Assembly: GCA_016212525.1 (NCBI GenBank)
Contig: JACRGD010000010.1
Span: forward strand, 527,860 to 591,859
Reading direction: 5' to 3'
DNA from: Candidatus Micrarchaeota archaeon
Lineage (GTDB): Archaea; Micrarchaeota; Micrarchaeia; Anstonellales; Bilamarchaeaceae
DNA length: 64,000 nucleotides
In this document: positions 1,108 through 63,345 of the stretch, in pieces
Layout: each line of letters starts with the position of its first letter
Position numbering within the stretch: the first letter of the stretch is position 1
Notes under the pieces: model-generated
Database searches by the model: none
Told to the model about the DNA's origin: nothing
The model's input: only the letters and a program-made list of their open reading frames with translations
Translations under genes and position numbers: made by a program

Positions 1108-1932
1108 TTAGCGAATCCTTATTGGAAGTGCTGCGAGAACATTGAGATCATGCAAGTGTCCTTGCTCAGGCTCGGGCAAAGTAACTTCTTCGCGCGGCTC
1201 TGGAGCAACCCGGGGCGCATTTCTTGTTGCAGACCTGGCTCCCCTTTGATCATCCCGAGTTACAAACAATTGTTCGCGTTCGGTTGATGAATATCTTGGA
1301 GTATTTTGCAAATTGCCTGCGAGTTCATGAAGAAAAACGTTTGCCCGGTTATTCGGAAGGCTACCAGCACGGCGATCCAGAGTTTCGGCGGCAACTTGCG
1401 GATCGATTTGCATGTTTGCACGATACTCGGCCAAGGCATTGGTTATGGTAGAAGGCTCTACCCCCAAACGCCGACATTCGCGGGCTATGAAACTTGCAGT
1501 CTGAGGCTCGAATTGAACCTGACGGATAACTTCTGATGAAACTAATCCCTGCGAAGCACTCGCCAGAGCAGATCTGACCAATCCATCGACATTCGAGTAG
1601 TTTGGAGTCGAAGTCGGGCGCCCGTTGCTACGATGCATATTAGCCATTATGTTCTGTGCAAAAAGCAAACCGTCAGAGGGGAGTTGCGGGGATCGTATTG
1701 TTCCGCTCGAATCACGAGGATAACCAATACCTATTTGCTGCCCGTCATGCGAACTCACTTGTCCATTTTGAATATAATTTGTCATTTCCTTTATATCCCA
1801 GCCCCTAACTGCGCAGATTTGCTCGAGCCGAGTCTGCAGCGCAGGAGGAATTAATCTGGAATTAACCTCGAAAGAGGTGGTCTGAGCCTGAGTTGGGCCG
1901 GGAATCTGAATTTGTCCTGTTGGATCTCCCAT
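1108..1932 (-). CDS. Hypothetical protein, Lys-depleted and Arg-rich (1 Lys in 274 aa)
   Basis: Long ORF with only short opposite-strand ORFs. A TATA-like TATTTAA (complement of 1955-1961) lies about 23 nt upstream of the ATG. No motif recognised. Confidence 0.6.
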   Translation of the reverse strand: MGDPTGQIQIPGPTQAQTTSFEVNSRLIPPALQTRLEQICAVRGWDIKEMTNYIQNGQVSSHDGQQIGIGYPRDSSGTIRSPQLPSDGLLFAQNIMANMHRSNGRPTSTPNYSNVDGLVRSALASASQGLVSSEVIRQVQFEPQTASFIARECRRLGVEPSTITNALAEYRANMQIDPQVAAETLDRRAGSLPNNRANVFLHELAGNLQNTPRYSSTEREQLFVTRDDQRGARSATRNAPRVAPEPREEVTLPEPEQGHLHDLNVLAALPIRIR

Positions 1933-2094
1933 AAATCACTTGCGAAATTTACACTTAAATAGCTTCCTAATTCCCGCAATTCCAAAACAGAAACAAAATA
2001 ATTCAAGAAAAAACACAAAAAATGAAATAGAACGGGGAAACCATCAAACAGAAGGAGGGATGGGTGGGATGATGGCTCCCCCGCGAGCATGAAA

Positions 2095-2766
2095 TTATTC
2101 TGGAGTTGGAGGCACCGATGGATAACCGGATGAACCGCCGTAGAGTTCATTAAAATCACAAACACGACCAGGAGTTTCAAACTTTGAATTGTCTGCTATC
2201 CAGGGCCTGCAGTTGTAACTAGTTGGAGGAAGATTTGCATAATCCGGAGTTTGTGCGGATGAAGGAGTAGTCGATGGAGCATCAGTTCCTGTTTCAGTCG
2301 AAGAAGAAACATCGAGTTGCAACCACTGGCACGTATTCATATATGGAGAGCCATCATTGCATCCGATCAACATAGAATTACCTCTTCGAACCATTGCCAT
2401 AGTAGAGCAGCTTGAACCTGCCCGGCTAGAGGGTTGTCGAAGTTCTACACGATTCTTTTGAGTACCATCCATATACAACTTCATTGTGATCTGACCTGCA
2501 GAGGTCGTAGAAGCAATATCACATTCGATTGGAATACCAAGTGCAACCAATTGAGCATAACCAAGACCCGCAAGATTCTGAGCTGGAGGAGTTGGACTTG
2601 TACTTGGAGTTGGGTTGGAAGGAGGAGAATTTGGAACTGCGGGATTATTTGAATTCGAATTTGACGCAGGGGCTTGCGGAGTCTGAGGATTTGTGCATCC
2701 AAAGATCAGCAATGAGATCGCAACGAGCGAGATTAACATGAGTCTAGAGTCGAATCGCATGAACAT
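2095..2766 (-). CDS. Secreted or lipoprotein-like protein with a Pro/Ser/Thr/Asn-rich linker
   Basis: N-terminal signal peptide ends in the lipobox-like LLIFGC, followed by a low-complexity PxS/T linker. TTTATAAAT at 2783-2791 lies about 17-25 nt upstream of the start. Confidence 0.7.
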   Translation of the reverse strand: MFMRFDSRLMLISLVAISLLIFGCTNPQTPQAPASNSNSNNPAVPNSPPSNPTPSTSPTPPAQNLAGLGYAQLVALGIPIECDIASTTSAGQITMKLYMDGTQKNRVELRQPSSRAGSSCSTMAMVRRGNSMLIGCNDGSPYMNTCQWLQLDVSSSTETGTDAPSTTPSSAQTPDYANLPPTSYNCRPWIADNSKFETPGRVCDFNELYGGSSGYPSVPPTPE

Positions 2767-2894
2767 GAATGAAAACTTAACGTTTATAAATCTAATCCCG
2801 AGATCAGAGCGTCAAAAATGCAGATAAAACTCAAAATTCATCACATATTAATTTAGATCTAAGCAGTACACATACAGAGCAGGAGACGGATTGA

Positions 2895-3851
2895 ATGTCC
2901 ATACTTCAAAGTTCATTTTTCGGAAAGAGAATCAAGAATCCGGTAATTCTCGCATCGGGAATCATGGGAATGACCAAAGGTTCGCTTGAGCGGGTTTGTG
3001 ATGAGGGAGCAGGTGCAGTAATTGCCAAATCGCTAACACTCGAACCCAGAAAAGGCCATGCCGGACCCAACATCGTCGAGGTTGAAGGGGGCATGCTAAA
3101 TGCCATGGGATATCCAAACCCAGGAATAGAAGAAGGCCTTAAGGAATTTGGGAACTGGAATCGCTTGGATGAAGCACTTATTATTAGTATAGTAGGAAAG
3201 AGCCCAAAAGAATTTGAACAGCTCTCTCAAAAAGTCGAGGAAAGGAAAAAAATACTAGGTGCAAGTGCAATCGAAGCTGTGATCTCGTGTCCCCATACAC
3301 CAGGATTTGGAACGATGGCAGGACAGGGAACCCCGGACTCGATCAGAGAGATCACAACGGCAATAAAAGACAACTGTACACTGCCTCTGATAATCAAACT
3401 CTCACCCTCAATTCCAGGAGAAGGCAAAGCGGCAAAAGCCGCAGAGGATGCAGGCGCAGATGCAGTTAATATGGGCAACTCGCTTGGACCGGGAATGAAG
3501 ATCGACCTAAATCGCAAGGTTCCGGTTCTTGGTTTTGGTGTGGGCGGACTAACCGGCCCGGCAGTCAAACCGATAATTGTCCGATCTGTCTTTGACATAT
3601 ATGACTCAGTAGATATTCCAATCATTGCAACCGGAGGTATCAGTACGGGCGAAGACGCAATAGAAATGATGATGGCCGGAGCAAGCTTTGTGAGCGTCGG
3701 AACCGCAGCCTATTTCAGAGGCCCCCCAGTATTTGGACAGATCGCAAATGAAATGAAAGAGTGGATGAAGAAAAATAAATATTCGAAACCCGGGCAGCTA
3801 ACCGGACTTGCACATGATGAATGGAAGAAATGCAAGAGCGATTTAGTTTGA
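2895..3851 (+). CDS. pyrD: Dihydroorotate dehydrogenase catalytic subunit (class 1B type)
   Basis: NPVILASGIMG, GYPNPG, NMGNSLGPG and IIATGGI motifs are typical of the PyrD TIM barrel. The pyrK partner lies 2 kb downstream. Confidence 0.9.
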   Translation: MSILQSSFFGKRIKNPVILASGIMGMTKGSLERVCDEGAGAVIAKSLTLEPRKGHAGPNIVEVEGGMLNAMGYPNPGIEEGLKEFGNWNRLDEALIISIVGKSPKEFEQLSQKVEERKKILGASAIEAVISCPHTPGFGTMAGQGTPDSIREITTAIKDNCTLPLIIKLSPSIPGEGKAAKAAEDAGADAVNMGNSLGPGMKIDLNRKVPVLGFGVGGLTGPAVKPIIVRSVFDIYDSVDIPIIATGGISTGEDAIEMMMAGASFVSVGTAAYFRGPPVFGQIANEMKEWMKKNKYSKPGQLTGLAHDEWKKCKSDLV

Positions 3852-12193: not shown

Positions 12194-12925
12194 CTAGGTG
12201 CTTGTTTTAGCTGCAGGGTTAAGAGATTCGATAAACGAAACCAGACTAGACCAATCAGAACAGACCGCATCTAACCTAGCGCGATAGTCAGTAGAAGCAT
12301 CTGGAGGACTAAGAGCATCCGAATCAAATAAGGACTGACGGGCATTATTGAAATGTTTAACCGCGAGATCACGATTTCCTGATTCGGAATCCTGGACGAA
12401 AGCCCGAAGCAAATTCCAAGCACGACGAACCAGAACTTTTCTGCTTAGCAAGGGCAGCGAGGCATCTTCATAGACCATGCTGGATCTGCCTAGCAAATCC
12501 GCAGCAGCCACCAAAGCAGCAGAGCGTTTTGATGAATCAGACTGACGGGAAGCTTCATACTCACGAACATTTGATGCCCTAAAAAGTTCATCCGCGGCGG
12601 ACCTAAGATCAGCAGGGTTTGAGCAGCATTCATACGCCTTCAAATATGCGCGTGAAGAATCAGTATAATCAATAACGGCACGGTTAAATTCTCCCGATCG
12701 AAAACGAAACATGGCCGCCTCAGATAAGAGAGATCCAGCGGCTACATAATCAGAACGGGAAGAAACAGGATCAGTAGAGATAGATAAATCCGCCCGAGTT
12801 AGGAGTGCCTTTGCAGATCGCTCACTCTGAGCCATCGGATCAGCAGGACGCGGAGCTACACCTGAACCGGGAACGCTAAAAGGAGGGAGAGAAGTCAGAG
12901 TAGGGGGCCTAACACGTTGTGCCAT
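12194..12925 (-). CDS. Hypothetical alpha-helical protein, Lys-poor (6 K in 243 aa)
   Basis: Long ORF. No motif recognised. Confidence 0.55.
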   Translation of the reverse strand: MAQRVRPPTLTSLPPFSVPGSGVAPRPADPMAQSERSAKALLTRADLSISTDPVSSRSDYVAAGSLLSEAAMFRFRSGEFNRAVIDYTDSSRAYLKAYECCSNPADLRSAADELFRASNVREYEASRQSDSSKRSAALVAAADLLGRSSMVYEDASLPLLSRKVLVRRAWNLLRAFVQDSESGNRDLAVKHFNNARQSLFDSDALSPPDASTDYRARLDAVCSDWSSLVSFIESLNPAAKTST

Positions 12926-16984: not shown

Positions 16985-18475
16985 TTAACTACCATATAGT
17001 GAACAATAGCTAGACCCGTAAAGATCCCCATTTGGCACAAAACCACTCATTTTTATTGCCACAGTTGTACTTGTAGATTGATTAATGATTGGAATCTCAA
17101 CTCCTTTTACTATGACTCCAGTACCCCCACAAGTTCGTACATAACTAAATCGCCTACTAAAACAATCGGGATCCAGTATGCTCGAATCCCAAGTCCCAAA
17201 TATTATTCTTACATAATAGGGCGTGTGGAGAGTTGTTGGGAGTGCAAAATATCGATATGACAAATCGGTTTCTGGATCGGACAAGGTGACTGGATCAACA
17301 GATGTTTTTGAACTATCTGGAGCAATTACGGAAAAATCAGCAGTGCAGGTATCGCCCCTAGCTTCCAATACTTCGGATAAAACATTATCTAAACCCAATC
17401 TTGTCTGACTTATGCCTACGCTCACTATGTAGTTGGGGAAATTAACTGTGGACCCTCCGATTGAAACATCACTAGGAGTTAGGTCGTTAATTAGCAATAA
17501 TTTTCTTCCGGTAGATGAACTAAAAGAAGTAACCGCATCGCTTGAAAGGTCAGTTGCTTCCCTTACTGATGAAGGTGCTGGATTACATGCTCCATTATTG
17601 CAACCATAAGTGCATGTTTGCGAGATCATTCGCTTGGCACCGAATCTGCAATAGTATTCTGTGATCGTATTCCCGCTGCAATAATCCACTCGGCTTTCCC
17701 GCGTACCTGAACTACCGTCGTAATAACTAATTGTTCCCTTTACATTATAGTTAGTTCCGCCATCAGTGTCACTACAGGTTTCATTGGTAGAAGAAGCTCC
17801 TGCTAAAAGAGAATTACAAGCGCCTCCTCTAGAAGAACAACCATCAGGGCACGAATATACTTCGACTCCAGTAGTATTATCTGAGTTACAATAATACTCT
17901 ATAACCCGATTAGCAAGGCATGAATCGGTTCTTGTTTCCCAAGTAGTTCCGTTAGAAGAAGTAGTAGTACCATTTACGTAGTATCTTTTTCCGTTGTCCG
18001 AATCATTGCAGGTCCTTATTGGAACTGCCGGATTACAGACTCCCTCAGAACAACCATTAGGGCAGGAATGGAGAGTCACTCCACGAGTGTTGTTAGCGTT
18101 ACAATAAAACTCAGTAACAAAGTTCAGAAGACAAAAATCGGTTTTGATTTCTATGCTTCGATTCTTTAGTACAAAGGTACTTCCTCGTTGCTCATAGTTT
18201 CTGCCGCCATCAGTATCATTACAAGATCCGCTGGTTCCCCTATGAGATCCCAGAAGTCTTCGCGCTTTATCATCAGTTTCATTATACGTCTGAACATCTT
18301 CTAAAAGGTCAACCTTACTCACATTTCCTATTAGCGCTATCTTAATTTCTTCAGCTACGGAAGTAGTAGAGAAAGGAGAGAGATTTTGAGGTTGTAGAAC
18401 CGTTGGCTCTCTATTTTGTATGCAACCGCCAATAAGAAGTCCCCCAAAAAGCAATAGCAAAATTACTAATCTCAT
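16985..18475 (-). CDS. Secreted Cys-rich protein with three tandem ~70-aa repeats
   Basis: The signal peptide ends in LLIGGC. Three repeats follow the pattern C-x-D-[TS]-D-x-G-x-x-Y...D-x-C...E-[YF]-Y-C...C-P-x-G-C...C-N. TTTATAAT at 18498-18505 lies upstream of the start. Confidence 0.7.
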   Translation of the reverse strand: MRLVILLLLFGGLLIGGCIQNREPTVLQPQNLSPFSTTSVAEEIKIALIGNVSKVDLLEDVQTYNETDDKARRLLGSHRGTSGSCNDTDGGRNYEQRGSTFVLKNRSIEIKTDFCLLNFVTEFYCNANNTRGVTLHSCPNGCSEGVCNPAVPIRTCNDSDNGKRYYVNGTTTSSNGTTWETRTDSCLANRVIEYYCNSDNTTGVEVYSCPDGCSSRGGACNSLLAGASSTNETCSDTDGGTNYNVKGTISYYDGSSGTRESRVDYCSGNTITEYYCRFGAKRMISQTCTYGCNNGACNPAPSSVREATDLSSDAVTSFSSSTGRKLLLINDLTPSDVSIGGSTVNFPNYIVSVGISQTRLGLDNVLSEVLEARGDTCTADFSVIAPDSSKTSVDPVTLSDPETDLSYRYFALPTTLHTPYYVRIIFGTWDSSILDPDCFSRRFSYVRTCGGTGVIVKGVEIPIINQSTSTTVAIKMSGFVPNGDLYGSSYCSLYGS

Positions 18476-23519: not shown

Positions 23520-24233
23520 TTAGCCCGAACCGCAATAAAGCGACACGTCCACATTCATTTCTCTGGAGATTGCTGCAACTTGAGCTTTTAGGAGAGGAGA
23601 TAAAAGCAGATCTGGATCAGCAGCAACCAGCTCAAGAGCCACAGACACAGAGTCAAAATCAGCACGGAGAGACTTTAACGAATCGATTAGAGAAGAATCT
23701 GGTCCATGAGATTCCACACGAGAAACTAGAGTCAAACCGATACCCAAATTGCTAGCAGTAGCAAAAAGAGAGCGTACATTATCAGGTTCATAGTCAACGA
23801 TCGCTTCCAGATCAGTAAGTCGAATCGGATTTGTTAGTGACCATAGACCAGCTCGATCAGGAGCTACAAGAACCGTATTTCTAAGGGCTCGAAGTATTGC
23901 TTTCCCCAGAGGACTAAGAACCTCATCAACAGAAGCACGAACTCCGAATATGGCCGGCTTTAGCGCAGATACGATATCCAAGGCAGTGCTGGTCAGATGA
24001 TACATATGAAGATCTGATGCTTTCGAACCAGGATGCAAAGAAGATGGGACAGAGCGAAGCTCAACTGCGAGCTTTGCGGATGGATCGATAAGGGGAAGCT
24101 GTGCAAAGCCAGGCATGTTTTTAATTGACTCTCCTGGACTTGGATTTTCAACCACTACCACAAAGTGTCGGGTAACCGGAAAATCAACAGAGCGGATAAA
24201 AACACGCTTAGTAAGTAACGGAATAGTAGACAT
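23520..24233 (-). CDS. Hypothetical protein, Lys-poor (8 K in 237 aa)
   Basis: Long ORF. No motif recognised. Confidence 0.5.
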   Translation of the reverse strand: MSTIPLLTKRVFIRSVDFPVTRHFVVVVENPSPGESIKNMPGFAQLPLIDPSAKLAVELRSVPSSLHPGSKASDLHMYHLTSTALDIVSALKPAIFGVRASVDEVLSPLGKAILRALRNTVLVAPDRAGLWSLTNPIRLTDLEAIVDYEPDNVRSLFATASNLGIGLTLVSRVESHGPDSSLIDSLKSLRADFDSVSVALELVAADPDLLLSPLLKAQVAAISREMNVDVSLYCGSG

Positions 24234-35466: not shown

Positions 35467-36171
35467 TTATCCTTTGCCAATAGAAATCACTTGAGGCTCG
35501 CGATAAAGAAAGGAGCCCAAAGGAGCGAGTAACAGTAACACGGTTGGAGGAAGCGGATCATCAAGAATAAATGAGGGGTGAAGAGGACTGGTATCTAGAC
35601 GGACAAAAGAGTGAGCAGCATCTGGAATAAGAGAGCCATGAACAACCCTAAAGGAAGCAGGAGAAAGAACAGGAACAACCGGTCTTGGACAACCAGGCCG
35701 AATAGTAATTTGAGCACTTCCCGCAGTGGCCTTTTCAAATGCAATTTCGCGATCACGATAAAATTTCTGGATTCGTCTTGCCATCCCAGGAGATAGAATT
35801 GGAAATACCTGGGGTCCATCAGGACCAGAAGAAGACAGAAAACCAGAGAAGGGAAGAATCTCACTAGCACTCATACGCCTGAAAATTTGTGGTCCGTGAA
35901 TATTAAGAAAAACAGCTATATCCAGATCAACAGCACCCAGAGATGGAGTTGAATAGGGGGAAACTACGCACAGAGCAGTAGGAGCGGCATCTTTAGATCT
36001 CTCAACTGCAGGCATCTGACCATCAAAGCGCTTTGATAGAAGTTCAGGGGTACGAACATCCCGTGCTATAGGCGGATCGGGCCAAAAAGTAGTTTGTCTA
36101 TACTCATGCAATCTGGCAATTTGAGGAACTGCCATGGCGATAGACCGATCACTAATTTTCCTAGAAGTCAC
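35467..36171 (-). CDS. Hypothetical protein, Lys-poor and Pro-rich (6 K in 234 aa)
   Basis: Long ORF. TTTATAAAT (36193-36201, palindromic core) lies 22-30 nt upstream of the start. Confidence 0.5.
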   Translation of the reverse strand: MTSRKISDRSIAMAVPQIARLHEYRQTTFWPDPPIARDVRTPELLSKRFDGQMPAVERSKDAAPTALCVVSPYSTPSLGAVDLDIAVFLNIHGPQIFRRMSASEILPFSGFLSSSGPDGPQVFPILSPGMARRIQKFYRDREIAFEKATAGSAQITIRPGCPRPVVPVLSPASFRVVHGSLIPDAAHSFVRLDTSPLHPSFILDDPLPPTVLLLLAPLGSFLYREPQVISIGKG

Positions 36172-40314: not shown

Positions 40315-41664
40315 CTATTTCGAGGGCAACTCGATCGTATAATTCATAACATCCCCCGATGAGGAAACATTAGTTAGTCTAAATGCCTCACTGCCATCAG
40401 ACCAGTTGAGAACCAGGGGCTGACCCAAGAAATAGAGATCATCATTTGACCAAAGCCCCTTTGAATCATCAAACGGGTAGTAGCCCGGCCGATACATCCA
40501 AAGACCCAGCCTGCCCCAATCAGTCTTGGCAATAGTTGCCCAATTAGAATCCAAAACAAGATCGGGCTTTGAAACAAAATCATAACTTCTAGGTCCCTCG
40601 ATCGCTCGCCAGATTCCAAGACCAGAATCTGGAATAGATGCATCATAAGCACCGCGCTGACGATTCTCAATAATATAGAATTCGTAACCAGCAGGAATCG
40701 GATGCTTTAGCACGGCCACAGTGTGTGAGTAATCGACTCGTGAGATTTGGTAACAACCGCTCGAATCAATCACCTTAAGGTCCAACCAACCAGCACGCAT
40801 CTTCTGATATGGGTCAAGATGCGGGGCACTCCAGGGCTGGTCCATTATCGAATAGGCTCCAGCCGCATATGGGAAGAAATAGGTGAAATAGAGATCCTGT
40901 GTCCCCAGGTATAGATGCAGAAGTTCATGAGACGGAGTTCCTACATTGAGGGGGTTTCCTGAGCCGGAAGAAGACAGCCAGGTCAAATCCACTCCATCAA
41001 GATGCATCGGAACAGAACCGCCAAACTCGCGACCATAGGAGGGACGGGTTGCACCGCCGGGCCCGGGAGTATTGTGCGGAAGAACGATAAATATTCCCAG
41101 CTCCTGGGGCGTCAAAATACCATCATAATTAGTATCATAGCGCGAGAAATCAAAATCCGGATCTGCTTTCTTTAGCATCTCGCTATAGAAGCGTTGCTCG
41201 CCACTAATGATACCATCGCCATCAGAATCATTTGGATCGTTGTAATCCCAGTAGTATTGCCAATCATGATCCAATGGATATTTGAGAATTGTCGCCTCGT
41301 GGAGCCGCCCTTTTGTGTTTGAAATATTATAGAAGTAATCAGCAATGCTATTCGTCTCACCAAAGAACCAGTTCCTGGTTTGGGAGATTGACGGAGCAGG
41401 GTCCGAAGTGCTCAGTCGATCAGCGATTATGACCAAAAGCGGACTGTCAAAGGATTTGGGAGTTGGAATATTGTAGGTAAGATCAGAATTGGGAAATCCA
41501 CAGGAATTTGAAGGAGAGGAAGGCTTCCCAATAGCATAGTTATTTGGTGGAATGGAAATATTGACATCTGGCGAAATCGGCTTGCCAAAATTAGGAATTG
41601 TACAACCAAATAAGATAAGCAGGACAAAAATTACAGGAAGAATAGAAAAAGAAGAAAATCGCAT
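40315..41664 (-). CDS. Secreted or lipoprotein-like HExxH metalloprotease (M6-like)
   Basis: The signal peptide ends in LILFGC. HELLHLYLGTQDLY resembles the M6 HExxHxxGxPDLY motif. DSDGDGIISGEQ and YDTNYDGILTPQE are Ca-binding-like loops. Confidence 0.6.
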   Translation of the reverse strand: MRFSSFSILPVIFVLLILFGCTIPNFGKPISPDVNISIPPNNYAIGKPSSPSNSCGFPNSDLTYNIPTPKSFDSPLLVIIADRLSTSDPAPSISQTRNWFFGETNSIADYFYNISNTKGRLHEATILKYPLDHDWQYYWDYNDPNDSDGDGIISGEQRFYSEMLKKADPDFDFSRYDTNYDGILTPQELGIFIVLPHNTPGPGGATRPSYGREFGGSVPMHLDGVDLTWLSSSGSGNPLNVGTPSHELLHLYLGTQDLYFTYFFPYAAGAYSIMDQPWSAPHLDPYQKMRAGWLDLKVIDSSGCYQISRVDYSHTVAVLKHPIPAGYEFYIIENRQRGAYDASIPDSGLGIWRAIEGPRSYDFVSKPDLVLDSNWATIAKTDWGRLGLWMYRPGYYPFDDSKGLWSNDDLYFLGQPLVLNWSDGSEAFRLTNVSSSGDVMNYTIELPSK

Positions 41665-47057: not shown

Positions 47058-47645
47058 ATGGATAAAGGTGGCATAAAAAGTCTAAAAAATCCGGATTCCA
47101 GAGCAGAACCAAAAAGGGCAGAAGAACCTCTTCGAAGGCAACAGTTAGCATTTTCCCGATTTGTCCCATCTGCACTTGGCCTTGCAGTCATATTGTCAGG
47201 CGCACCAGCAATAGCCAACCCACCCCAGATAGCCAGAACTCCAATCACTACAAACTGGAGCGGCGGAACTTGTACAATAGATAATAGCAGATTGATATAT
47301 ACAGATCGAAAGGGGCACAGTGCTCGCACATATCTCGCATTTGCACCAATAGCCCCAACCAGAGTAATGTGCTCAGGCACGTATTCGGTAATATTGGAAA
47401 CTAACGGAGACGTCATTGTAGCAGTTGGCGCCCAGGAAGTCTTCGCACAGGGAGTAAATGCAATAATTTCGACCCGAATGAGGGGATTAAATGTCGGAAA
47501 CTCATACCTGCTTCCTGCTCCTATAACAAATATCGATCCAGCAAATGCAACACTACGGGGAACGACCCTTAGAATAAATAGTGTTGGTACAGGAGACACG
47601 TACACACTAGATGTTTCAAATCCGGTGAAATGGAGCCAACAATAA
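47058..47645 (+). CDS. Secreted or membrane-anchored hypothetical protein
   Basis: A charged N-terminus is followed by a signal/anchor segment (FVPSALGLAVILSGAPAIA). TTTATAA at 47020-47026 lies 31 nt upstream of the ATG. Confidence 0.5.
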   Translation: MDKGGIKSLKNPDSRAEPKRAEEPLRRQQLAFSRFVPSALGLAVILSGAPAIANPPQIARTPITTNWSGGTCTIDNSRLIYTDRKGHSARTYLAFAPIAPTRVMCSGTYSVILETNGDVIVAVGAQEVFAQGVNAIISTRMRGLNVGNSYLLPAPITNIDPANATLRGTTLRINSVGTGDTYTLDVSNPVKWSQQ

Positions 47646-48271
47646 AAAAGGTGAAAACTATGGTAAACACGCAGATGGAAAGACCAATAGAAGACAAACA
47701 TCATACAATTGAGGGTACGATGCTCGCACAGACAGTACCCCGAAGGGCAATACCGGCAAACCCGATCGCAGCAGGACCCATAAATCCGATAATGGCGAAC
47801 TTTATGCAAACCCAGTTTCCTGCGCCAACTGCCGCAGACCGGACTGCATTAACCGGATTCATGAGAGACGCAGATCCAAATGCAAGTTATGATCAGGTCT
47901 TAAGAGATTTTACAAGGCAAAACCCGGAGAACTCAATTTCCCGTTACTACAATTTAATAGGCCAGGACAACGTTGATTGGATTATCAATGCCCGCGGCCA
48001 GGTCGCATTTAACCAGAGCGCACTTAGATCGACAGTTGAATCCAAACTGGGAATTTCAGGTATGAATGACTTGATGAGAAATCCGCCTAGATCAGGAGCT
48101 GCTGAAATAACAATACCAGTAACATCAGCCAACCGGGAGCTCGCCGAGCTATTCGTTCAAAATGCACATTTTCCATCAGGATATGAAATTAGCGGCCCTG
48201 AAACGAGAGATTTTCGAAGCGTCATGGTGTTTAGATACAACTCTGGAAGATCCACAGTTGACATTCAGTAG
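47630..48271 (+). CDS. Hypothetical protein (start probably ATG 47660)
   Basis: The ORF follows the previous gene. GGTGA lies upstream of ATG 47660. A T-rich tract follows the stop. Confidence 0.5.
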   Translation: MEPTIKKVKTMVNTQMERPIEDKHHTIEGTMLAQTVPRRAIPANPIAAGPINPIMANFMQTQFPAPTAADRTALTGFMRDADPNASYDQVLRDFTRQNPENSISRYYNLIGQDNVDWIINARGQVAFNQSALRSTVESKLGISGMNDLMRNPPRSGAAEITIPVTSANRELAELFVQNAHFPSGYEISGPETRDFRSVMVFRYNSGRSTVDIQ

Positions 48272-51832: not shown

Positions 51833-51841
51833 TTTATAAAT
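51833..51841. promoter_or_regulatory. Archaeal TATA box TTTATAAAT, 25 nt upstream of ATG 51866
   Basis: Read directly. The position implies a leaderless or near-leaderless transcript. Confidence 0.6.
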
Positions 51842-51865
51842 CATTCTTGGCATCAGAATAGTTCC

Positions 51866-53398
51866 ATGTTCAAACCAGGAGAGCCAAGAATACGCGCAGG
51901 ACGGGATGCTTTTGGCAACTTATTATATCGTAGAGGCTTGTTCGAAAAGGCTGCAGAAGCATTTAGATGCGCTGGATCAGAGTTTGAAGCAAGGGCAGAT
52001 CGGATAGAGCGAAATTTACAAACACTCAAAGACGCCCATTTTCTAATGGACCTCAAGCTTCATTCAAGGGCTGCGCGGTGTTTAGTTGATGCGGATTTAG
52101 TCGAAGAAGCAGGCGAATTTGCCCGAAAGATCAAATACGTAAACACCAAAGAAGGTGCACTCTCACGCGCAATAGTCGCGATCAAAAAGGGAGATCATGG
52201 AGCCGCGGAAGCAGAGGCACAGGAAACGGACATATGTCAGGATTCCCATGGACATTATATAGCAGCGATAGTTCGAACGGGATACGAACCAGAACGAGCC
52301 AGAGAAAAAGCAGAAGAATTTCTTGGATATGGATCAGTGCAGGAAAACGCAGAAGAGATATATTACGCACTAAAAATATTTCAAAAGCTTAATGACTTGG
52401 ATCGGGCAAATCAAGCACTGATCGAACTCGAGGAATTGAGTTCCAAATCTGCAGAAAACAAAACATTCTATTGTGCCGGACTTCTTAGCGTCGGTGGAAA
52501 AGAAGCAATAATTCAAAAGAAGGACCAGCTGATGGAAGGTGAATTCTTTGTCCAAACGCTCGTCATTGTCAGACTCTCCACGGCAGATATTGATACGCTC
52601 ATATTAGAATTAGAGCGAATTTACTCACCTTCTGAGGATGAAGAATGCATAGCTGCATATACGGAAGCAATAAACTGCGCATCTGAGGCATCCGGTTTTG
52701 AATGTCCCCTCCTTGGAGTCAATGGACTGCGGGCGCTTGCAACTGCCCGACAAATAAGAGTGGACCGGATAGAAAATCGAGAGGAATTCACATTTAAAAC
52801 TATCGAACGCATACTTAGCGGACCTCGAAATCTAGAGAAGATCAGGGAAGCCGCAGACATACTCCAATCCATAGAGGATACCAGATCTGAAAGATCCCAG
52901 AATGCAGCATTAAAAATTGCAGAAGCAGCGGCGACATTGGAGGATTTGGAAGCTCAGGAACTTGCCAGAACACTATTCGAAACGATACATAGGCCATCAG
53001 AAGCACTTGATTGCGTAAGACGAATGATGAAAGCAGGCGGATCAGAAGAGTTAGAAGACCACTTTGAGCGGCTTGCAAGACAGCTTGAGCCCCAAGCGGA
53101 GATTCTGGCAGCACGGGAAATGTACAACCGAAATAAATTCATCACAATAAATCTATTACTGGATGCAGGTGAGAATTACGAAGCGAACCAGATTGCAAGA
53201 AAAATAATAGAAAGCGGAACAGTTGAGGAACTAGAGATGCTCGGATACGCAATCGCTCGGGGAACTTCACCATTAGCAGGAAAACACAGTCAGATGTTAC
53301 AAGAGATACTAAGAGGACTGGAGGAAAAAGGAGCAGCAAATACTGCAGAGGAAATACGGGTTACAATGCGAATACCCAGAATATACGCAGTTCAGTGA
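51866..53398 (+). CDS. Hypothetical alpha-helical protein
   Basis: ATG 51866 lies 25 nt downstream of TTTATAAAT (51833-51841). The ORF-track start at 51809 would precede that promoter. Confidence 0.6.
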   Translation: MFKPGEPRIRAGRDAFGNLLYRRGLFEKAAEAFRCAGSEFEARADRIERNLQTLKDAHFLMDLKLHSRAARCLVDADLVEEAGEFARKIKYVNTKEGALSRAIVAIKKGDHGAAEAEAQETDICQDSHGHYIAAIVRTGYEPERAREKAEEFLGYGSVQENAEEIYYALKIFQKLNDLDRANQALIELEELSSKSAENKTFYCAGLLSVGGKEAIIQKKDQLMEGEFFVQTLVIVRLSTADIDTLILELERIYSPSEDEECIAAYTEAINCASEASGFECPLLGVNGLRALATARQIRVDRIENREEFTFKTIERILSGPRNLEKIREAADILQSIEDTRSERSQNAALKIAEAAATLEDLEAQELARTLFETIHRPSEALDCVRRMMKAGGSEELEDHFERLARQLEPQAEILAAREMYNRNKFITINLLLDAGENYEANQIARKIIESGTVEELEMLGYAIARGTSPLAGKHSQMLQEILRGLEEKGAANTAEEIRVTMRIPRIYAVQ

Positions 53399-54111
53399 GA
53401 AACCACAAAAACCAGAGAAGCGGGTTTTGCTTCGCTTAATGCTAACTCAATAGTCAGATCATTATCTTGAGCGAACCGACGTATGTAGAATCGTATTGCA
53501 TTAAGCACAGCATCCACAGGAATATCAGTTCGAATTTTCGGAAGATCTGGGTAAACGGTATTGAGCCAGGCTGATCGGAAACATACAACAGTGCTCCCGC
53601 GATGTGCAGTGGCAATGTCTTTCCAGGCATCAAAGAGTTCTTTCTCAGGATGCGAAATCAAAACTACATCTGCGGCAGACAAAACCAGAGAAGGCGCAAG
53701 ATCCGAATATTTTGCCCTAACAAAAGTCGCAAGTCGAGTTGGACTTGGAAAATAACGGTTAGCAGAATCCAAACCAACTGCAGACCGATCAGCCAGGACA
53801 GAAAAGGCCAGCGATGCCAGACCGGCGCCACAACCCAGATCGACTAAGCGACCAACAGATCGGGCCGCACAGACTGCGCCAAGCATACATTGTTCTTCTG
53901 CAGAAGAGAAAAATACTTCTTGAGGCAATTCACCAAATGAAAAACCTTCTGATTCGAAGTGAGATTTATACATAGCCAAATGTCTTCTCATATGTATAGA
54001 AGTAGCTCTACCAAAAACAGGTATATCTGAACCCCCAGGCCTGCCAGACCAACAAACTTTCGACTGGTCCGCAGGTCGAATTAGATCTCTAAATGCAGCT
54101 GCCTTAAGCAT
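53392..54111 (-). CDS. Putative SAM-dependent methyltransferase-like protein, Lys-poor
   Basis: LVDLGCGAGLASL resembles SAM motif I. Nothing else is recognisable. Confidence 0.45.
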   Translation of the reverse strand: MLKAAAFRDLIRPADQSKVCWSGRPGGSDIPVFGRATSIHMRRHLAMYKSHFESEGFSFGELPQEVFFSSAEEQCMLGAVCAARSVGRLVDLGCGAGLASLAFSVLADRSAVGLDSANRYFPSPTRLATFVRAKYSDLAPSLVLSAADVVLISHPEKELFDAWKDIATAHRGSTVVCFRSAWLNTVYPDLPKIRTDIPVDAVLNAIRFYIRRFAQDNDLTIELALSEAKPASLVFVVSH

Positions 54112-58518: not shown

Positions 58519-58998
58519 TTAGCGATGTCTTGGAGTCCGGGTTGGATGTGCCCGCGCGAGAGCAGCAGCTTCATGAGGAACAAGAAAATCATTCATTTGC
58601 TGCCAGATTGCCGCATAGATTTTATCTGCATGGGTTGGTGAGGTATGGTCTTGTGCAAAAGTTTCGTTTACCCGATTAGCAGTATCGGGGAATCTAAAGC
58701 GATCCAAAAGGCCCATAAAAACAGATGAATCAATAACCTGACCACTCGGCATACGAAGAGTATGCGTATGATAGTCTACACCATAAGAAAGGCGCTCTAG
58801 ACGCCTCGTGACCTCGGTTTGTGCCTGAGTTGGAGTGGGAAATGCATGAGTTCGGATTAATTCATCCCGGTAATCCAAAAACACCTGTGCCACTTCAGCT
58901 CGAAAGCGACGAAGATCGGCAACAGTGGGTGGTTGATAAACAGGTTCTTCGCGTCTTGATGGGGCCGGAGTCCGATATTGGAAAATCAACATAAACAA
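58519..58998 (-). CDS. Hypothetical protein, Lys-depleted (1 K in 159 aa)
   Basis: ORF with a TTG start at 58998. An ATG at 58992 is more likely. Confidence 0.5.
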   Translation of the reverse strand: MFMLIFQYRTPAPSRREEPVYQPPTVADLRRFRAEVAQVFLDYRDELIRTHAFPTPTQAQTEVTRRLERLSYGVDYHTHTLRMPSGQVIDSSVFMGLLDRFRFPDTANRVNETFAQDHTSPTHADKIYAAIWQQMNDFLVPHEAAALARAHPTRTPRHR

Positions 58999-59022: not shown

Positions 59023-59964
59023 TTATCTAAGAGGAGTCTGGACGAAAACACCCGCATAATAAGAGGGCAAATGAGTCCATCCACCAGTTTCCCAAAGCAC
59101 AGGATAACCCTCATTTTCGAGAAATAATTTCCAGTTCCTCTGGGGATCAGTAGAATCATAGCATCCTTCATAGCCACGATGATAAAAAGCCAAAAATTGA
59201 GCAGAAATAGGATATTTGCCATTAGTTAGGAGTTCGTTAAGATCAGTAAGAAAGGAAACGGCCTGAGTTGGTGAGAGACCCTGGATTCGCCAATCGTGAA
59301 GAGTTTCGTGTATGACATTTCTGCGTACAATATCAGGATCAGAAACACGAGAATTGAAGAAGAAAAAATTTGGGCCATCAGAATTGCAAACTTCGCCAAC
59401 ACCAGCGCCAGGATCAAGAGATCGTAAAAAACAGCCAATAACACCAGAACTCCTAAGAGACTGATCAGGATTGGAAGAATGATAAACAAGAAAATAATTA
59501 TCGGTAAATGCAGGCGCAAGAGTTTGGAGATTTAGTTCTGATAGTGTCGGTGCAATAAATCGATCAAAATAGACACGAAGCCGCAAGCGCTCCGAAGGGG
59601 GAATTGCGGATGGAGAATCGAAATTGGGAGAGCTCGAATTTGCAGCAGCGTAGAAAGCCGGATTGAAACCAAATTCAGTTTGTTCGTATCGATATTGTCC
59701 ACTGGAAATAGCAAGATGGAATGCAGGAATCCAGCGATAGGCCGGATCGAACCTAGGTGTAGGCGAAACGCGAGAAACAGGAACAATATTACGAGTGTGC
59801 TCAATAGATAGATGCACCGGATTGCCTGAAAGGGAAAGTGCAACAGCACAAAGAGCGAGTCTCTTCAATTTACCACAAAAGTAGATTAATTGAAACTCTT
59901 TAAAAGACCATGGGTCAAAATAGTTAATACCATGAAACCAAAAATTCTTCAAAGAGCCAAGCAC
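59023..59964 (-). CDS. Secreted HExxH-motif protein, Lys-poor
   Basis: VIHETLHDW contains HExxH. The probable start is TTG 59868, giving M-KRLALCAVALSLSG as a signal peptide and removing the overlap with the divergent ORF. Confidence 0.55.
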   Translation of the reverse strand: MLGSLKNFWFHGINYFDPWSFKEFQLIYFCGKLKRLALCAVALSLSGNPVHLSIEHTRNIVPVSRVSPTPRFDPAYRWIPAFHLAISSGQYRYEQTEFGFNPAFYAAANSSSPNFDSPSAIPPSERLRLRVYFDRFIAPTLSELNLQTLAPAFTDNYFLVYHSSNPDQSLRSSGVIGCFLRSLDPGAGVGEVCNSDGPNFFFFNSRVSDPDIVRRNVIHETLHDWRIQGLSPTQAVSFLTDLNELLTNGKYPISAQFLAFYHRGYEGCYDSTDPQRNWKLFLENEGYPVLWETGGWTHLPSYYAGVFVQTPLR

Positions 59965-61649: not shown

Positions 61650-62093
61650 TCAAACAGAAATTTGATTTAACCGGGCCAAGATAGTATCTCTTAGTTCGTC
61701 AGTTAAATCGAACGTGTATTGCGAACCCAGATTAGGATCGATACAATGCCTCATTGCATTAAGAAGAGCTAAGCGCGAGTTTGCAGGTGGGGAATTCGGA
61801 GTTATTGCATCAAAAACCTCCATTCTCATCTGAGCATACATCGAACGGAAATTACCAGCATGTGAGAGGTCATATATAGTCTGTAAAATAGCCTGTTGCT
61901 CCCGATCAGTAAAAGAAGGATTGGGGGAACGGAACTGAGCACTGGTAATGATCATTTGAAATTGCCGCTGCTCCGCTTCAGCCTGACCACGAATCACAAC
62001 AACACGGGCACCGAGTTGGTCAGAACGTCGTGGCACAGCACCAGTAAGAGCAGATTTCTCATCTTCTTCACGAATCATGCGAGTAGTAGACAT
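61650..62093 (-). CDS. Hypothetical protein, Lys-depleted (1 K in 147 aa)
   Basis: ORF. No motif recognised. Confidence 0.5.
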   Translation of the reverse strand: MSTTRMIREEDEKSALTGAVPRRSDQLGARVVVIRGQAEAEQRQFQMIITSAQFRSPNPSFTDREQQAILQTIYDLSHAGNFRSMYAQMRMEVFDAITPNSPPANSRLALLNAMRHCIDPNLGSQYTFDLTDELRDTILARLNQISV

Positions 62094-62146
62094 AGTACGA
62101 ATATAGGAAGAGAAACGATAAAAAGATTCTTTGAGAATTGTAAATC

Positions 62147-62662
62147 ATGTCCAAGGTAATGATGATAGTTGCACAGCAGGGATTTCGGGATGAGGAACTT
62201 TTTGTACCAAAACAGATTTTGGAGAAAGCAGGACACACCGTAAAAGTCGCAAGCCTGCTTCGATCAAAAGCCACCGGATCAAAAGGGGCAATAATCACCA
62301 CAGATATGGCAATTAGTGAGGCCAACCCGGATTATTTCGATTTGATAGTCGTTGTAGGTGGGCCCGGCTCGGCAGCACTCTCTGAAAACCAGACAGTCTT
62401 ATCATTCATGAATGCAGTAAATATAAAGAAAAAAAAGATTGCTGCGATTTGTCTTGGGCCTATGGCTCTTGCCAGATCGGGAGTGCTTGGAGGAGTCGAG
62501 GCAACAGTTTTCCCATCCGCAGAGGGCATAACCACACTTAAGAGTTCGGGCGCACTTTATACTTCTAAAAAAATAGTAGTTACTGACCGGATCATCACTG
62601 CAGACTCACCGGAAATGGCTCATGAATTTGGCGATTCTTTAGTCAGGATGTTGAAAAAATAA
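62147..62662 (+). CDS. DJ-1/PfpI family protein
   Basis: AAICLGPMALARSG nucleophile-elbow Cys, and the length and layout are typical of the family. Confidence 0.8.
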   Translation: MSKVMMIVAQQGFRDEELFVPKQILEKAGHTVKVASLLRSKATGSKGAIITTDMAISEANPDYFDLIVVVGGPGSAALSENQTVLSFMNAVNIKKKKIAAICLGPMALARSGVLGGVEATVFPSAEGITTLKSSGALYTSKKIVVTDRIITADSPEMAHEFGDSLVRMLKK

Positions 62663-62667
62663 GGAGA

Positions 62668-63345
62668 TTAGTCCGAGTACGGAATTAGTAGGGATCGAAT
62701 AGTCGCGATGGCAGGATTGTTCCAAAGCGATTTTACCGCACCATCAATATTCGCAACCGCCGCAAGAGGACCTGATTTTGGATCGGTCAAATTCACCATG
62801 AATTGAGTAAGGGCAGTATCCATTGAGCCAGCATGCTGATTACCAGTCTGAGTAAGTTGAGCAAAGAGCTGTTTTTGAGCATTCGTCAGCGCAAAAAGTG
62901 CATCGGAAGCTTCCACTCCAGCCTGAACTTTAGAGTAATCAGGGACAGTTGCACATGCAGTAAGCGCTGCAGGAAGAGAAGAGTTAAGCGCCACTAATAT
63001 AGATGGATCGAAGCCAGACTTATCAGATTGAAGATTTATTGCATATTCACGACTATCCGGAGTCACTTTAGCACGAATAACCGCTCCGAGAATTTTAGCG
63101 CCAGGAACAGGAGACAATGATAGTTTAGCAGTAATCCTAACCTGACCATTTAATTCTTCAGCTAAAACAGATGTCGATGAGCGCCATCCAGTCGTAGTTG
63201 TACATCTTAGATGAGTCATTTTGGCACCATCAAGAGTAGCAGCTGAAGCAGGAGCATCAGAATACCCCAATCGAGCCAGAGTATCTTTTAGAGTAGCAAA
63301 ATCAGCAGAAGGAATCCGAACCATTCGTTTTTGAGCAGTAATCAT
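62668..63345 (-). CDS. Hypothetical protein
   Basis: 225-aa ORF. TTTATAAAT (63369-63377) lies 24-32 nt upstream of the start. Confidence 0.5.
   Translation of the reverse strand: MITAQKRMVRIPSADFATLKDTLARLGYSDAPASAATLDGAKMTHLRCTTTTGWRSSTSVLAEELNGQVRITAKLSLSPVPGAKILGAVIRAKVTPDSREYAINLQSDKSGFDPSILVALNSSLPAALTACATVPDYSKVQAGVEASDALFALTNAQKQLFAQLTQTGNQHAGSMDTALTQFMVNLTDPKSGPLAAVANIDGAVKSLWNNPAIATIRSLLIPYSD

Follow-up and report, generated by a model that had tools for sequence, protein, structure and literature searches.

Frame-specific exclusion of lysine codons in a subset of fast-evolving ORFans of a micrarchaeal genome

Lysine deserts, i.e. long stretches maintained free of lysine while arginine is retained, are conserved in the ubiquitin-proteasome system of eukaryotes and in pupylating bacteria, with avoidance of modification as their rationale (PMC10169902, PMC10665810). 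In the prokaryote survey (PMC10665810), a full-text count gives 0 occurrences of archaea. The genes described here resemble these deserts in their long maintained Lys-free stretches, in this case whole proteins of 469-749 aa, in retained arginine and in apparent avoidance of the ε-amino group. They differ in that these are uncharacterised ORFans of a DPANN archaeon and not known components of a tagging system, and that the trait is common to an exported partner, with no Lys-directed tagging system linked. Lys-poor, Arg-rich composition is also found in the A chains of ER-translocating AB toxins (cholera toxin A1, ricin A, pertussis S1; PMC4030972, PMC6471375), proteins acting in or on another cell, for which escape from Lys-directed degradation is the rationale. 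The Arg-over-Lys bias is alike; however, any target of the present proteins would be another archaeon, their delivery to a host is no more than our inference, and neither a toxin domain nor a B subunit or a route of translocation is known for them.

Bacterial effector-immunity pairs combine secreted effectors without signal peptide with adjacent lipoprotein immunity genes. As in polymorphic pairs of this kind, a soluble protein without export signal here adjoins one anchored in the membrane or by lipid, the genes diverge very fast compared to those flanking them, and they are expanded into paralogs in some genomes (L090, L125). In contrast, no domain of a toxin, immunity protein or secretion system could be recognised, and lysine purging is, to our knowledge, no property of effector-immunity pairs. 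With the lineage-specific ORFans and the surface lipoproteins that DPANN archaea generally carry, the present genes share the frequent lack of a family assignment, many lipobox signals and fast turnover between related genomes. Unlike DPANN ORFans in general, one amino acid is excluded here in a frame-specific manner, switch-like between lineages; no literature description of a conserved exclusion of this kind was found for DPANN ORFans.

The window, i.e. the whole 64-kb stretch of DNA analysed, represents about 10% of the genome of a tiny, symbiotic, Bilamarchaeaceae-like DPANN archaeon (source contig 665,676 bp). The relatives of its DNA ligase are all Micrarchaeota, the closest being 76% identical. 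According to base composition by codon position, the strand asymmetry of this genome is strong. The + strand is A-rich: at third positions, genes of the + strand have A.385 / T.216 and those of the - strand A.236 / T.364, and intergenic DNA has A.36 / T.26.

A first-pass annotation had proposed two gene classes in the window, Lys-rich housekeeping genes and about 15 Lys-depleted ORFans. Its lysine counts are all reproduced (0/694, 1/274, 1/159, 1/147, 6/243, 6/234, 8/237, 8/239 and 10/329 aa, and 32/327 for a TrxR-like ORF). The separation into two classes is not clean. Across 61 ORFs, the Lys fraction is fitted better by one Gaussian (BIC -224.7 vs -219.2 for two components) and K/(K+R) by two (means 0.32 and 0.68), with a bimodality coefficient of 0.43. 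Lysine content in the window varies continuously into an extreme tail and is not clearly bimodal. Median Lys is 8.5% in ORFs with a Pfam hit and 3.3% in those without (Mann-Whitney P = 3e-6), and the Lys-poor ORFans have no matches in Pfam, PHROG, NCBIfam or PADLOC. Ser, Pro, Thr, Arg and Gln are increased in the Lys-poor class, and Lys, Glu and Ile decreased; Arg reaches 8-12% in the extreme ORFs.

For each ORF, in-frame AAA/AAG codons (AAR) were compared with the out-of-frame counts and with the expectation from its own base composition. The Lys-poor list merges two phenomena, a compositional background (group A) and a truly Lys-purged subset (group B; Table 1). Roughly one in two of the ORFs on the list belongs to group A, in which in-frame AAR equal both out-of-frame AAR and expectation; composition and fast evolution therefore account for them, not exclusion of lysine. 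These ORFs, which the first-pass annotation had placed in the same class as the others, are Lys-poor through the A-poor strand without selection for a high lysine content; 12194..12925 and the six ORFs of its type all lie on that strand. The secreted-type protein 59023..59964, whose count likewise equals expectation, fits the pairing pattern described below without demonstrable exclusion.

Table 1. Features of the window. AAR, in-frame count; out-of-frame counts; expectation (exp.) from base composition.
Feature	Coordinates	Strand	Group	AAR	Remarks
Lys-free soluble ORFan	1108..1932	-	B	1; 15 and 13; exp. 9.9	1 Lys in 274 aa
Lipobox lipoprotein (LLIFGC), Lys-poor	2095..2766	-	B, lesser degree		directly upstream of 1108..1932, same strand
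Composition-only Lys-poor ORFan, representative	12194..12925	-	A	in frame matches out of frame and exp.	
Cys-rich lipobox lipoprotein, moderate Lys exclusion	16985..18475	-	B, lesser degree	12; 22 and 27; exp. 22.5	
Composition-only, as 12194..12925	23520..24233		A		
Composition-only, as 12194..12925	24283..25272		A		
Membrane-anchored, Cys-containing partner	29282..29911	+	B	4; 10 and 10; exp. 14.7	4 Lys in 209 aa; convergent with 29947..32031
Lys-free, Cys-free protein	29947..32031	-	B	0; 20 and 18; exp. 16.4	694 aa from GTG start
Repeat 3, ~85-aa alpha/beta domain	30004..30267	-			aa 589-676; domain HMM E = 4e-24
Repeat 2, with insertion	30337..30666	-			aa 456-565; domain HMM E = 1.5e-22
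Repeat 1	30892..31143	-			aa 297-380; domain HMM E = 1e-24
PurP (DUF1246/DUF1297), Lys-rich synteny anchor	32136..33188	+			divergent from 29947..32031
Composition-only, as 12194..12925	35467..36171		A		
Composition-only, as 12194..12925	38619..40250		A		
Composition-only, as 12194..12925	40315..41664		A		
N-terminally anchored Lys-poor protein	47058..47645	+	B	6; exp. 12.2	16-nt overlap with start of next gene; TM-like segment from aa 35
Lys-poor soluble ORFan	47630..48271	+ (A-rich)	B	5; 10 and 16; exp. 13.7	
Composition-only, as 12194..12925	53392..54111		A		
Lys-free soluble ORFan	58519..58998	-	B	1; 8 and 3; P = 0.07, too short alone	1 Lys in 159 aa; N-terminus (M)FMLIFQY
Secreted-type protein, internal signal-like KRLALCAVALSLSG	59023..59964	-	A	6; exp. 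5.7	24 nt upstream of 58519..58998
Lys-free soluble ORFan	61650..62093	-	B	1; 5 and 3; P = 0.08, too short alone	1 Lys in 147 aa

The purged subset comprises six to nine ORFs in which AAA/AAG are excluded solely in the reading frame, most strongly in 29947..32031, 1108..1932, 29282..29911 and 47630..48271. The four ORFs with the most extreme lysine counts (0/694, 1/274, 1/159 and 1/147) together contain 3 in-frame AAR, with 34.7 expected (P = 6e-12) and 48 and 37 out of frame. Mutational or compositional drift, by which weakly constrained ORFans of the A-poor strand would lose AAA/AAG and the Lys-free ORFs would form the tail, agrees with the strong strand asymmetry, with the A-poor strand carrying 12 of the 15 ORFs that rank lowest in K/(K+R), with a class composition resembling unconstrained sequence, with the absence of bimodality in Lys fraction alone, and with the exact fit of the base-composition expectation to about half of the listed ORFs. 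As a general explanation it is unlikely nevertheless: the association of low lysine with strand is not significant (Fisher P = 0.12), 29282 and 47630 are Lys-poor on the A-rich strand, the trait survives ~70% sequence divergence, and the exclusion is frame-specific, with 0 AAR in frame vs 20 and 18 out in 29947..32031 and 1 vs 75 and 94 in its ortholog P0012, the coding strand of which is A-rich (contig of 37% GC). The frame-specific AAR test rejects drift for the extreme ORFs.

At four sites of the window a soluble Lys-free ORF adjoins an anchored ORF. In the soluble Lys-free proteins neither a signal peptide nor a TM segment can be recognised, but hydrophobic or lipobox-like N-terminal segments occur in 2095, 16985, 40315, 29282, 47058 and 59023, so that the earlier statement that most Lys-poor proteins lack signal peptides is half right. 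Orthologs of 2095..2766 in L133 and L134 (38-46% identity) have 4 Lys in ~230 aa, with 9-18 out-of-frame AAR, and modules homologous to 16985..18475 are present in L001 and L133. Family searches with 1108..1932 gave no match, and no homologs were found for it, for 58519..58998 or for 61650..62093. A TATA-like box lies ~30 nt upstream of 1108..1932. The promoter box that several Lys-poor genes were said to share with housekeeping genes, TTTATAAA, is present in exact form at 36194 and 63369, as stated; at 1955 and 32039 it is missing, and the TATA-like boxes there, CTATTTAAGT and TTTATAAT, are related to it.

The gene 29947..32031 is the sole open frame at its site and likely starts at the ATG at 32007 (686 aa, MFLFQLSG); the Logan gene call has the same length, and the N-terminus aligns with that of P0012 (MFIFQIAG). 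In its protein a helical N-terminal region is combined with an ~85-aa alpha/beta domain that is present three times. The AlphaFold2 model of repeat 3 is confident (pLDDT 87, pTM 0.74) and gave no match in a fold comparison with the PDB; judged by this model, the domain would be new. The syntenic orthologs P0011 (469 aa, 1 Lys) and P0012 (749 aa, 1 Lys, 89 Arg) are 25-28% identical to it, while the genes flanking P0012 (in L082) are 76% (PurP, 32136..33188) and 73% (UPP synthase) identical to those of the window. From these comparisons the gene is judged to be native, very fast-evolving and clade-specific.

Spurious "shadow" ORFs antisense to real genes are typically Lys-poor and Arg-rich, as are long ORFs of relatives that lie antisense to Lys-rich genes (L003 9968-11719 and L015 2150-3745, both antisense to DNA ligase; L086 1724-2869, antisense to PurP), and in the window a 251-aa open ORF, 47054-47809(-), is antisense to 47058..47645(+). 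That the listed ORFs are of this kind is highly improbable: every listed site has many stops in the other five frames (5-50 per site), chance ORFs of >=234 codons are estimated from base composition at ~0.02 per window, codon-position periodicity of the class is normal, and 29947..32031 is backed by homology of its protein, by the repeats within it and by a confidently modelled fold. The shadow reading is rejected for the main ORFs; at 47054-47809 either strand may be the coding one.

Equally remote is horizontal acquisition from a Lys-poor, Arg-rich (high-GC) donor, virus or provirus, with which the absence of database matches and a GC content slightly above that of neighbouring genes would agree. 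The higher GC stems from codon positions 1 and 2, i.e. from amino-acid content, whereas in GC3 the genes match those around them (window, 0.34 vs 0.36; L082, 0.27 vs 0.27), as they do in strand skew. The genes are scattered over at least six separate sites between core genes, and syntenic orthologs are found in related Micrarchaeota only. These features contradict acquisition and bear out the earlier view that the genes are native and not one foreign island.

The partner 29282..29911, with a hydrophobic N-terminal segment, is matched by an HMM built from relatives only (E = 4e-9; 7e-39 after iteration), and lipobox-like N-termini occur in partners and other purged proteins. The domain HMM matches Lys-rich proteins (Lys 10.7-11.7%) whose genes occupy the same place upstream of purP in L096 and L097 and, iterated, also Lys-poor paralogs of L090. 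The A3 HMM, of Lys-poor members, matches Lys-rich L130, L096 and L097 at 1e-21 to 1e-28. The window family is linked to the L090/L125 family via HMM transitivity, direct hhalign giving E = 0.013 and a probability of 3%. Across related Micrarchaeota, both genes of the module are Lys-rich (8-11%) or both are purged (0-3%), with main/partner values of 0.0/1.9% Lys in the window, 0.1/0.0 in L082, 0.2/1.5 in L083, 0.75/2.6 in L125, 1.3/2.9 in L090, 10.7/8.4 in L096 and 11.4/9.8 in L130, seven loci that are not phylogenetically independent. PurP has 8.0-8.6% Lys in all full-length copies among relatives, and the lysine state of the superfamily is independent of genome GC over 37-59%. Lys-poor distant orthologs, Lys-rich members of the superfamily and co-variation of the partner demonstrate, at the level of sequence comparison, that the exclusion is kept by selection as a lineage-specific trait of the two-gene module rather than of the fold. 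The dedicated sub-proteome suggested earlier thus stands for the subset with in-frame-only exclusion, retention in orthologs of 25-28% identity and two-gene co-variation, and falls for the remaining ORFs.

Selection might act at decoding, lysine codons being purged for translation when lysine or charged, intact tRNA-Lys is scarce, e.g. in an auxotrophic symbiont cut off from its host or in conflict with a tRNA-Lys anticodon nuclease. That DPANN archaea are generally without amino-acid biosynthesis is established (e.g. PMC5498576) and agrees with this, as does the exclusion of both lysine codons in frame only. Columns that hold lysine in Lys-rich homologs are occupied in the purged ones by Ala, Arg, Glu, Ser, Thr and Gln; arginine is therefore no simple substitute, as had been supposed, and positive charge is not simply conserved, again in line with decoding. 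This explanation is doubtful, however, as sister lineages, presumably equally auxotrophic, keep the module Lys-rich, and no anticodon nuclease was seen in the window. Moreover, exported or anchored proteins and those encoded next to them are overrepresented among the purged ones, as would be expected of a compartment and not of a starvation regulon.

Alternatively, the proteins could be cytoplasmic and cooperate with, or be exposed to, the cell's own machinery for lysine tagging or acylation (SAMP/Urm1-type conjugation, acetylation, methylation), avoiding self-modification or degradation like ubiquitin-system components and proteins of pupylating bacteria. Such precedents are documented (PMC10169902, PMC10665810), and the soluble Lys-free proteins lack export signals. 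We consider this improbable, since the co-varying partner and other purged proteins, with their lipobox or signal sequences, are expected outside the cytoplasm; genes for a Ubl, an E1 or a JAMM protein were not found in the window.

The explanation we favour, with a probability of roughly one half, combines a compositional background with a Lys-purged module that would work at the envelope of the cell or where it meets its host. In the background, lineage-specific, fast-evolving ORFans, many of them lipobox or signal-peptide proteins and most on the A-poor strand, carry lysine codons only as nucleotide composition predicts, while conserved enzymes are held Lys-rich by selection. Placement of the module at the envelope or host-contact face follows from the export and lipid-anchor signals of the partner and several purged proteins, and assumes that the soluble Lys-free proteins are located outside the cell. 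Our best reading is that the two-gene module would serve at the cell surface or host interface and has been purged of ε-amino groups. At that face, the ε-amino group would in some lineages be a liability, open to Lys-directed proteolysis, conjugation, cross-linking or chemical attack; no Ubl ligase, Lys-specific protease or transglutaminase was identified in the window. The rapid divergence of the module would be consistent with an interaction or arms-race role, and the earlier labels "effector" and "modification-resistant" are at most putative for the purged proteins. The active removal of lysine suggests proteins working where lysine is harmful.

Lysine codons (AAA and AAG, together AAR) were counted per ORF in frame and in the two other frames, and set against the expectation from the ORF's own base composition (see table). 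The first-pass annotation had proposed one dedicated class of Lys-depleted, Arg-rich ORFans scattered among Lys-rich housekeeping genes, and all of its Lys counts are reproduced. A subset of these ORFs is under selection against in-frame Lys codons. The four extreme ORFs (0-1 in-frame AAR each) contain 3 AAR when pooled, vs 34.7 expected (P = 6e-12), and weaker exclusion is found in 16985-18475 and 2095-2766. Since three of the excluding ORFs lie on the A-rich strand, strand bias is not the cause. The extreme ORFs combine 9-12% Arg with 0-0.7% Lys and count as lysine deserts (regions of at least 150 aa without Lys): the 694-aa protein has no Lys, and those of 274, 159 and 147 aa have one each.

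About half of the first-pass list is strand composition plus missing constraint, so that of the proposed class only the excluding subset stands. The three AAR values agree, as from composition only, in the ORFs at 12194, 23520, 24283, 35467, 38619, 40315, 53392, 59023, 38003, 55681 and 62668, which sit on the A-poor strand without the two- to three-fold Lys enrichment of conserved genes there (55 AAR vs 23 expected in DNA ligase, 44 vs 17 in the M17 peptidase). The + strand is A-rich across the entire window (A.327 / T.245), in intergenic DNA (A.36 / T.26) and at third codon positions (A.385 / T.216 in + genes, A.236 / T.364 in - genes). Cumulative GC skew climbs without reversal, and a single replichore seems to span the whole window, with an AT skew unusually large for an archaeon. 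Nor do the window ORFs fall into two compositional classes by Lys fraction, which prefers one Gaussian (bimodality coefficient 0.43) and forms a continuum; for K/(K+R) two Gaussians are preferred. Median Lys is 8.5% in ORFs with a Pfam hit vs 3.3% in the others (P = 3e-6).

The listed ORFs are the sole open frames at their sites, with 5-50 stops in each of the five other frames, and codon-position periodicity of the Lys-poor class is normal, so that neither antisense shadows nor a different genetic code explain them. The exception in the six-frame stop maps is 47054-47809 / 47058-47645, two long ORFs open over the same DNA on opposite strands; the latter is taken as the real one, since it encodes a TM segment at its N-terminus and shares 16 nt with the beginning of the following gene. 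In relatives, three very long antisense shadow ORFs (381-583 aa), Lys-poor and Arg-rich, lie opposite Lys-rich genes. Such ORFs imitate the Lys-poor/Arg-rich signature and are a trap for composition-based classification and for gene callers.

Features of the window and of related loci (L numbers), with AAR counts for the ORFs of clear in-frame exclusion or of the Lys-free set; lipobox-like motifs were matched by eye
Locus	Coordinates (strand)	AAR in frame	AAR in the two other frames	AAR expected	Remarks
Window	29947-32031 (-)	0	20, 18	16.4	Lys-free repeat protein
Window	1108-1932	1	15, 13	9.9	
Window	29282-29911 (+)	4	10, 10	14.7	anchored partner; non-canonical lipobox-like N-terminus AALAC
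Window	47630-48271	5	10, 16	13.7	
Window	47058-47645 (+)	6	7, 16	12.2	
Window	58519-58998 (-)	1	8, 3	4.3	not significant alone
Window	61650-62093	1	5, 3	4.1	not significant alone
Window	2095-2766				lipobox-like LLIFGC
Window	16985-18475 (-)				lipobox-like LLIGGC; Cys-rich, repeated C...C modules
Window	40315				lipobox-like LILFGC
L133	3522-3977				lipobox-like LTLGGC
L090, L125					partners, lipobox-like LVASC, LLASC
L133	7971-9014				Cys-rich lipobox lipoprotein, repeated C...C modules
L001	12594-14267				Cys-rich lipobox lipoprotein, repeated C...C modules
L090	994-5497				enlarged purP-adjacent module
L125	3775-5931				enlarged purP-adjacent module
L124	1-1319				enlarged purP-adjacent module
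L003	9968-11719 (-)				long antisense shadow ORF opposite DNA ligase
L015	2150-3745 (-)				long antisense shadow ORF opposite DNA ligase
L086	1724-2869 (-)				long antisense shadow ORF opposite PurP
Window	47054-47809 (-)				overlaps 47058-47645
Window	35467-36171 (-)				ligase/M17 slot
L001	11725-14267				ligase/M17 slot
Window	53392-54111 (-)				Lys-poor; SAM-binding-like motif VDLGCGAGL
Window	13010-13615 (-)				Lys-rich MTS/PrmA-type methyltransferase
Window	25481-25553 (-)				tRNA-Gly(GCC), single tRNA gene of the window

The archaeal housekeeping genes recognised in the window encode an ATP-dependent DNA ligase, geranylgeranyl reductase, PurP, DHODH, GAPDH and TrxR. In the species-representative GTDB set 80 relatives of the DNA ligase were found, all in archaeal MAGs and nearly all labelled Micrarchaeota (Bilamarchaeaceae and others), the closest at 76% identity; by gene content and relatives, the source of the window is a small-genome DPANN archaeon. 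All proteins of the window are singletons, from one NCBI contig of 665,676 bp. A Logan assembly of run SRR12113407 contains the same region. Between the genes for DNA ligase and M17 peptidase, the window and the locus of the closest ligase relative (L001; 76% ligase identity) carry unrelated genes, a slot that illustrates fast ORFan turnover between conserved neighbours.

The lack of recognisable function claimed in the first pass is borne out: 0 of 20 Lys-poor ORFs match Pfam, 0 of 10 scanned match PHROGs, and the 10 main candidates have nothing credible in NCBIfam or PADLOC, where JetA (E = 1e-3) and mREase_II (E = 3e-3) were dismissed at 15 bits only. Homologs of 1108-1932, 58519-58998 and 61650-62093 were not detected. 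All-vs-all BLASTP brought out no paralogy among the window ORFs apart from a single weak link, which joins 53392-54111 to the methyltransferase 13010-13615 (26% over 101 aa, E = 0.002), of which it may be a diverged paralog. Shared promoter boxes had been placed at four sites. The exact TTTATAAA occurs at two of them (36194 and 63369), and TATA-like variants, not exact, near 1955 and 32039, at suitable spacing to the start codons. Another exact TTTATAAA box at 51833-51840 falls within the listed start of ORF 51809-53398 (GTG start), whose true start is probably further downstream.

The Lys-free protein 29947-32031 finds only itself by word-indexed protein search, with the 694-aa sequence and then with the window-family alignment (A1). 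HMMER, run exhaustively over 1.84 billion representatives, revealed two homologs, of 469 aa (P0011) and 749 aa (P0012). The gene for P0012, on a contig of 37% GC, is divergent from purP and near UPP synthase, as in the window; between the two loci purP is 76% and UPP synthase 73% identical, the Lys-free protein itself 25-28%. The coding strand of P0012 is A-rich, with 75 and 94 AAR out of frame, and the protein contains a single Lys alongside 89 Arg and 57 Gln; P0011 has one Lys over its 469 aa, against 52 and 61 AAR in the other frames, so that at 25-28% identity both conserve the lysine desert beyond composition. From these ortholog counts, Lys exclusion is judged to be kept by purifying selection over about 70% sequence divergence. 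The first-pass view of these genes as native rather than one foreign island agrees with GC3 and strand skew like those of their neighbours (GC3 at every locus compared), with their position at six or more scattered sites, and with homologs that were found in synteny and only on Micrarchaeota-like contigs; a horizontally acquired island is rejected on these grounds, and a Lys-poor donor finds no support. For the extreme ORFs, explanations by pure drift, horizontal transfer or spurious reading frames are contradicted. The N-terminus MFLFQLSG (31984-32007, -; ATG at 32007) has MFIFQIAG as its counterpart in the alignment with P0012. The (M)FMLIFQY of 58519-58998 (58969-58998, -) resembles both; the similarity of these Lys-free N-termini may represent a shared targeting or structural motif, or coincidence.

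In the Lys-free protein a unit marked by the motif YxYxFxxxGxxYxIxxxxPI...L is repeated three times. Its full-length AlphaFold2 model is poor (pLDDT 50), with meaningless Foldseek matches; that model suggests a helical region at the N-terminus and, after it, three beta-hairpin/helix/strand/helix units. A single-unit model from a nine-repeat alignment is confident (pLDDT 87, pTM 0.74). Neither Foldseek of the single unit against the PDB (best E = 1.2, TM < 0.33) nor PDB sequence searches gave a match, and the ~85-aa unit is taken as a new repeat domain. Among 49 purP loci from JGI metagenomes, the repeat-unit HMM matches, in L096 and L097, the upstream gene divergent from purP (429 aa, Lys 10.7-11.7%); iterated, it also matches Lys-poor paralogs in L090. 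An HMM built from the Lys-poor members of L090, L125 and L124 alone (family A3; Lys 0.5-2.8%, Arg 8-12%, Gln 6-11%) matches Lys-rich members of L130, L097 and L096 at 1e-28 to 1e-21. The putative superfamily link between the window family and L090/L125 partly relies on HMM transitivity; hhalign of A3 directly against A1 aligned the expected module, but at E = 0.013 and 3% probability. Significant matches of the repeat-unit, A3 and partner HMMs to 1108, 58519, 61650, 47630 and 47058 were absent, the best sub-significant scores being those of 61650 (E = 0.065) and 2095 (E = 0.076). Lys state does not depend on locus GC: purged members occur at 37%, 43%, 51% and 59%, rich ones at 46% and 55%. Lys of PurP is constant at 8.0-8.6% in every full-length copy. 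The purged lineages do not cluster by PurP identity, and more than one transition of Lys state is therefore likely. Where the rich members have Lys, the aligned residues in the purged ones are Ala, Arg, Glu, Ser, Thr and Gln, i.e. Lys removal and not a one-for-one swap to Arg. The enlarged modules beside purP contain 2-3 Lys-poor repeat-domain paralogs and up to two partners, which suggests local duplication and diversification.

The protein 29282-29911, adjoining the Lys-free repeat protein, has an N-terminal hydrophobic segment and several Cys, and is matched by a partner HMM built from relatives alone (E = 4e-9; 7e-39 when iterated). Lipobox-like N-termini, defined as a hydrophobic segment followed by [LVI][ASTFG][GAS]C, occur in several of these proteins. 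Lys contents of repeat protein / partner are 0.0 / 1.9% in the window, 0.1 / 0.0% in L082 (the locus of P0012), 0.2 / 1.5% in L083, 0.75 / 2.6% in L125, 1.3 / 2.9% in L090, 10.7 / 8.4% in L096 and 11.4 / 9.8% in L130 (Spearman's rho about 0.89, n = 7, a hand calculation over phylogenetically non-independent loci). Selection against Lys acts on the two-gene module and flips between lineages. Within the window, a soluble Lys-free ORF also stands beside an anchored Lys-poor ORF in 1108/2095, 47630/47058 and 58519/59023. The lipoprotein 2095-2766 is kept and Lys-poor in relatives L133 and L134, and L133 holds another Lys-free ORFan, itself a lipobox protein. Lys-free candidates in the 80 ligase loci were low-complexity junk or shadow ORFs, so that the purged class belongs to some lineages and not to Micrarchaeota generally. 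The L133 homolog of the Cys-rich lipoprotein 16985-18475 has a Kazal_1 (protease-inhibitor-like) Pfam hit in precomputed annotation; if the family were a surface protease inhibitor, this would bear on readings based on proteolysis.

DPANN archaea are obligate symbionts, ORFans make up a third or more of their genes, and to our knowledge the molecules of their host contact are almost wholly uncharacterised. Export or lipid-anchor signals occur in the partner and several other purged proteins, and the module diverges far faster than the genes around it. This is read most economically as a module of the cell envelope or host-contact face, for which the Lys ε-amino group would be a disadvantage in some lineages. 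As to polymorphic effector-immunity pairs, the observations are mixed: the genes of the module are adjacent, diverge fast and show paralog expansion, and no known toxin or immunity domain was matched. Toxin catalytic domains were not found by Pfam, NCBIfam, PADLOC, PHROG or PDB, and the Lys-free candidates, viewed as putative toxins or effectors, show no signal peptide or TM segment. Lysine deserts are known from ubiquitin-system proteins and from pupylating bacteria (PMC10169902, PMC10665810), and Lys-poor A chains from AB toxins (PMC4030972, PMC6471375); the literature search found these precedents for Lys purging and nothing for DPANN. The purge may possibly protect from the cell's own Lys-directed tagging, and no gene of a Lys-directed tagging or degradation system is present in the 64-kb window; it may also make translation robust to a shortage of lysine or tRNA-Lys. 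Beyond the envelope or host-contact reading, and with a probability of only roughly 15%, some Micrarchaeota might have evolved a Lys-free interaction proteome of fast-evolving soluble proteins and lipid-anchored partners, deployed at or into the host archaeon and escaping Lys-directed defence by host or community (for example ubiquitin-like tagging, Lys-specific proteolysis or cross-linking). If true, this proteome would parallel Lys-free AB toxins, with one prokaryote acting on another, and frame-specific exclusion of Lys codons would be a sequence-only marker of DPANN host-interface proteins.

Under strong strand asymmetry, low Lys by itself is no evidence of a functional class. An alignment-free criterion, Lys codons missing in frame and common out of frame, isolates a coherent, selected ORFan subset that includes the new repeat domain and a co-varying anchored partner, and it would be applicable to every DPANN and CPR genome. 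The switch of one module between Lys-rich and Lys-purged states in sister lineages is a natural experiment, which could reveal the driving Lys-directed process in symbiont, host or environment.
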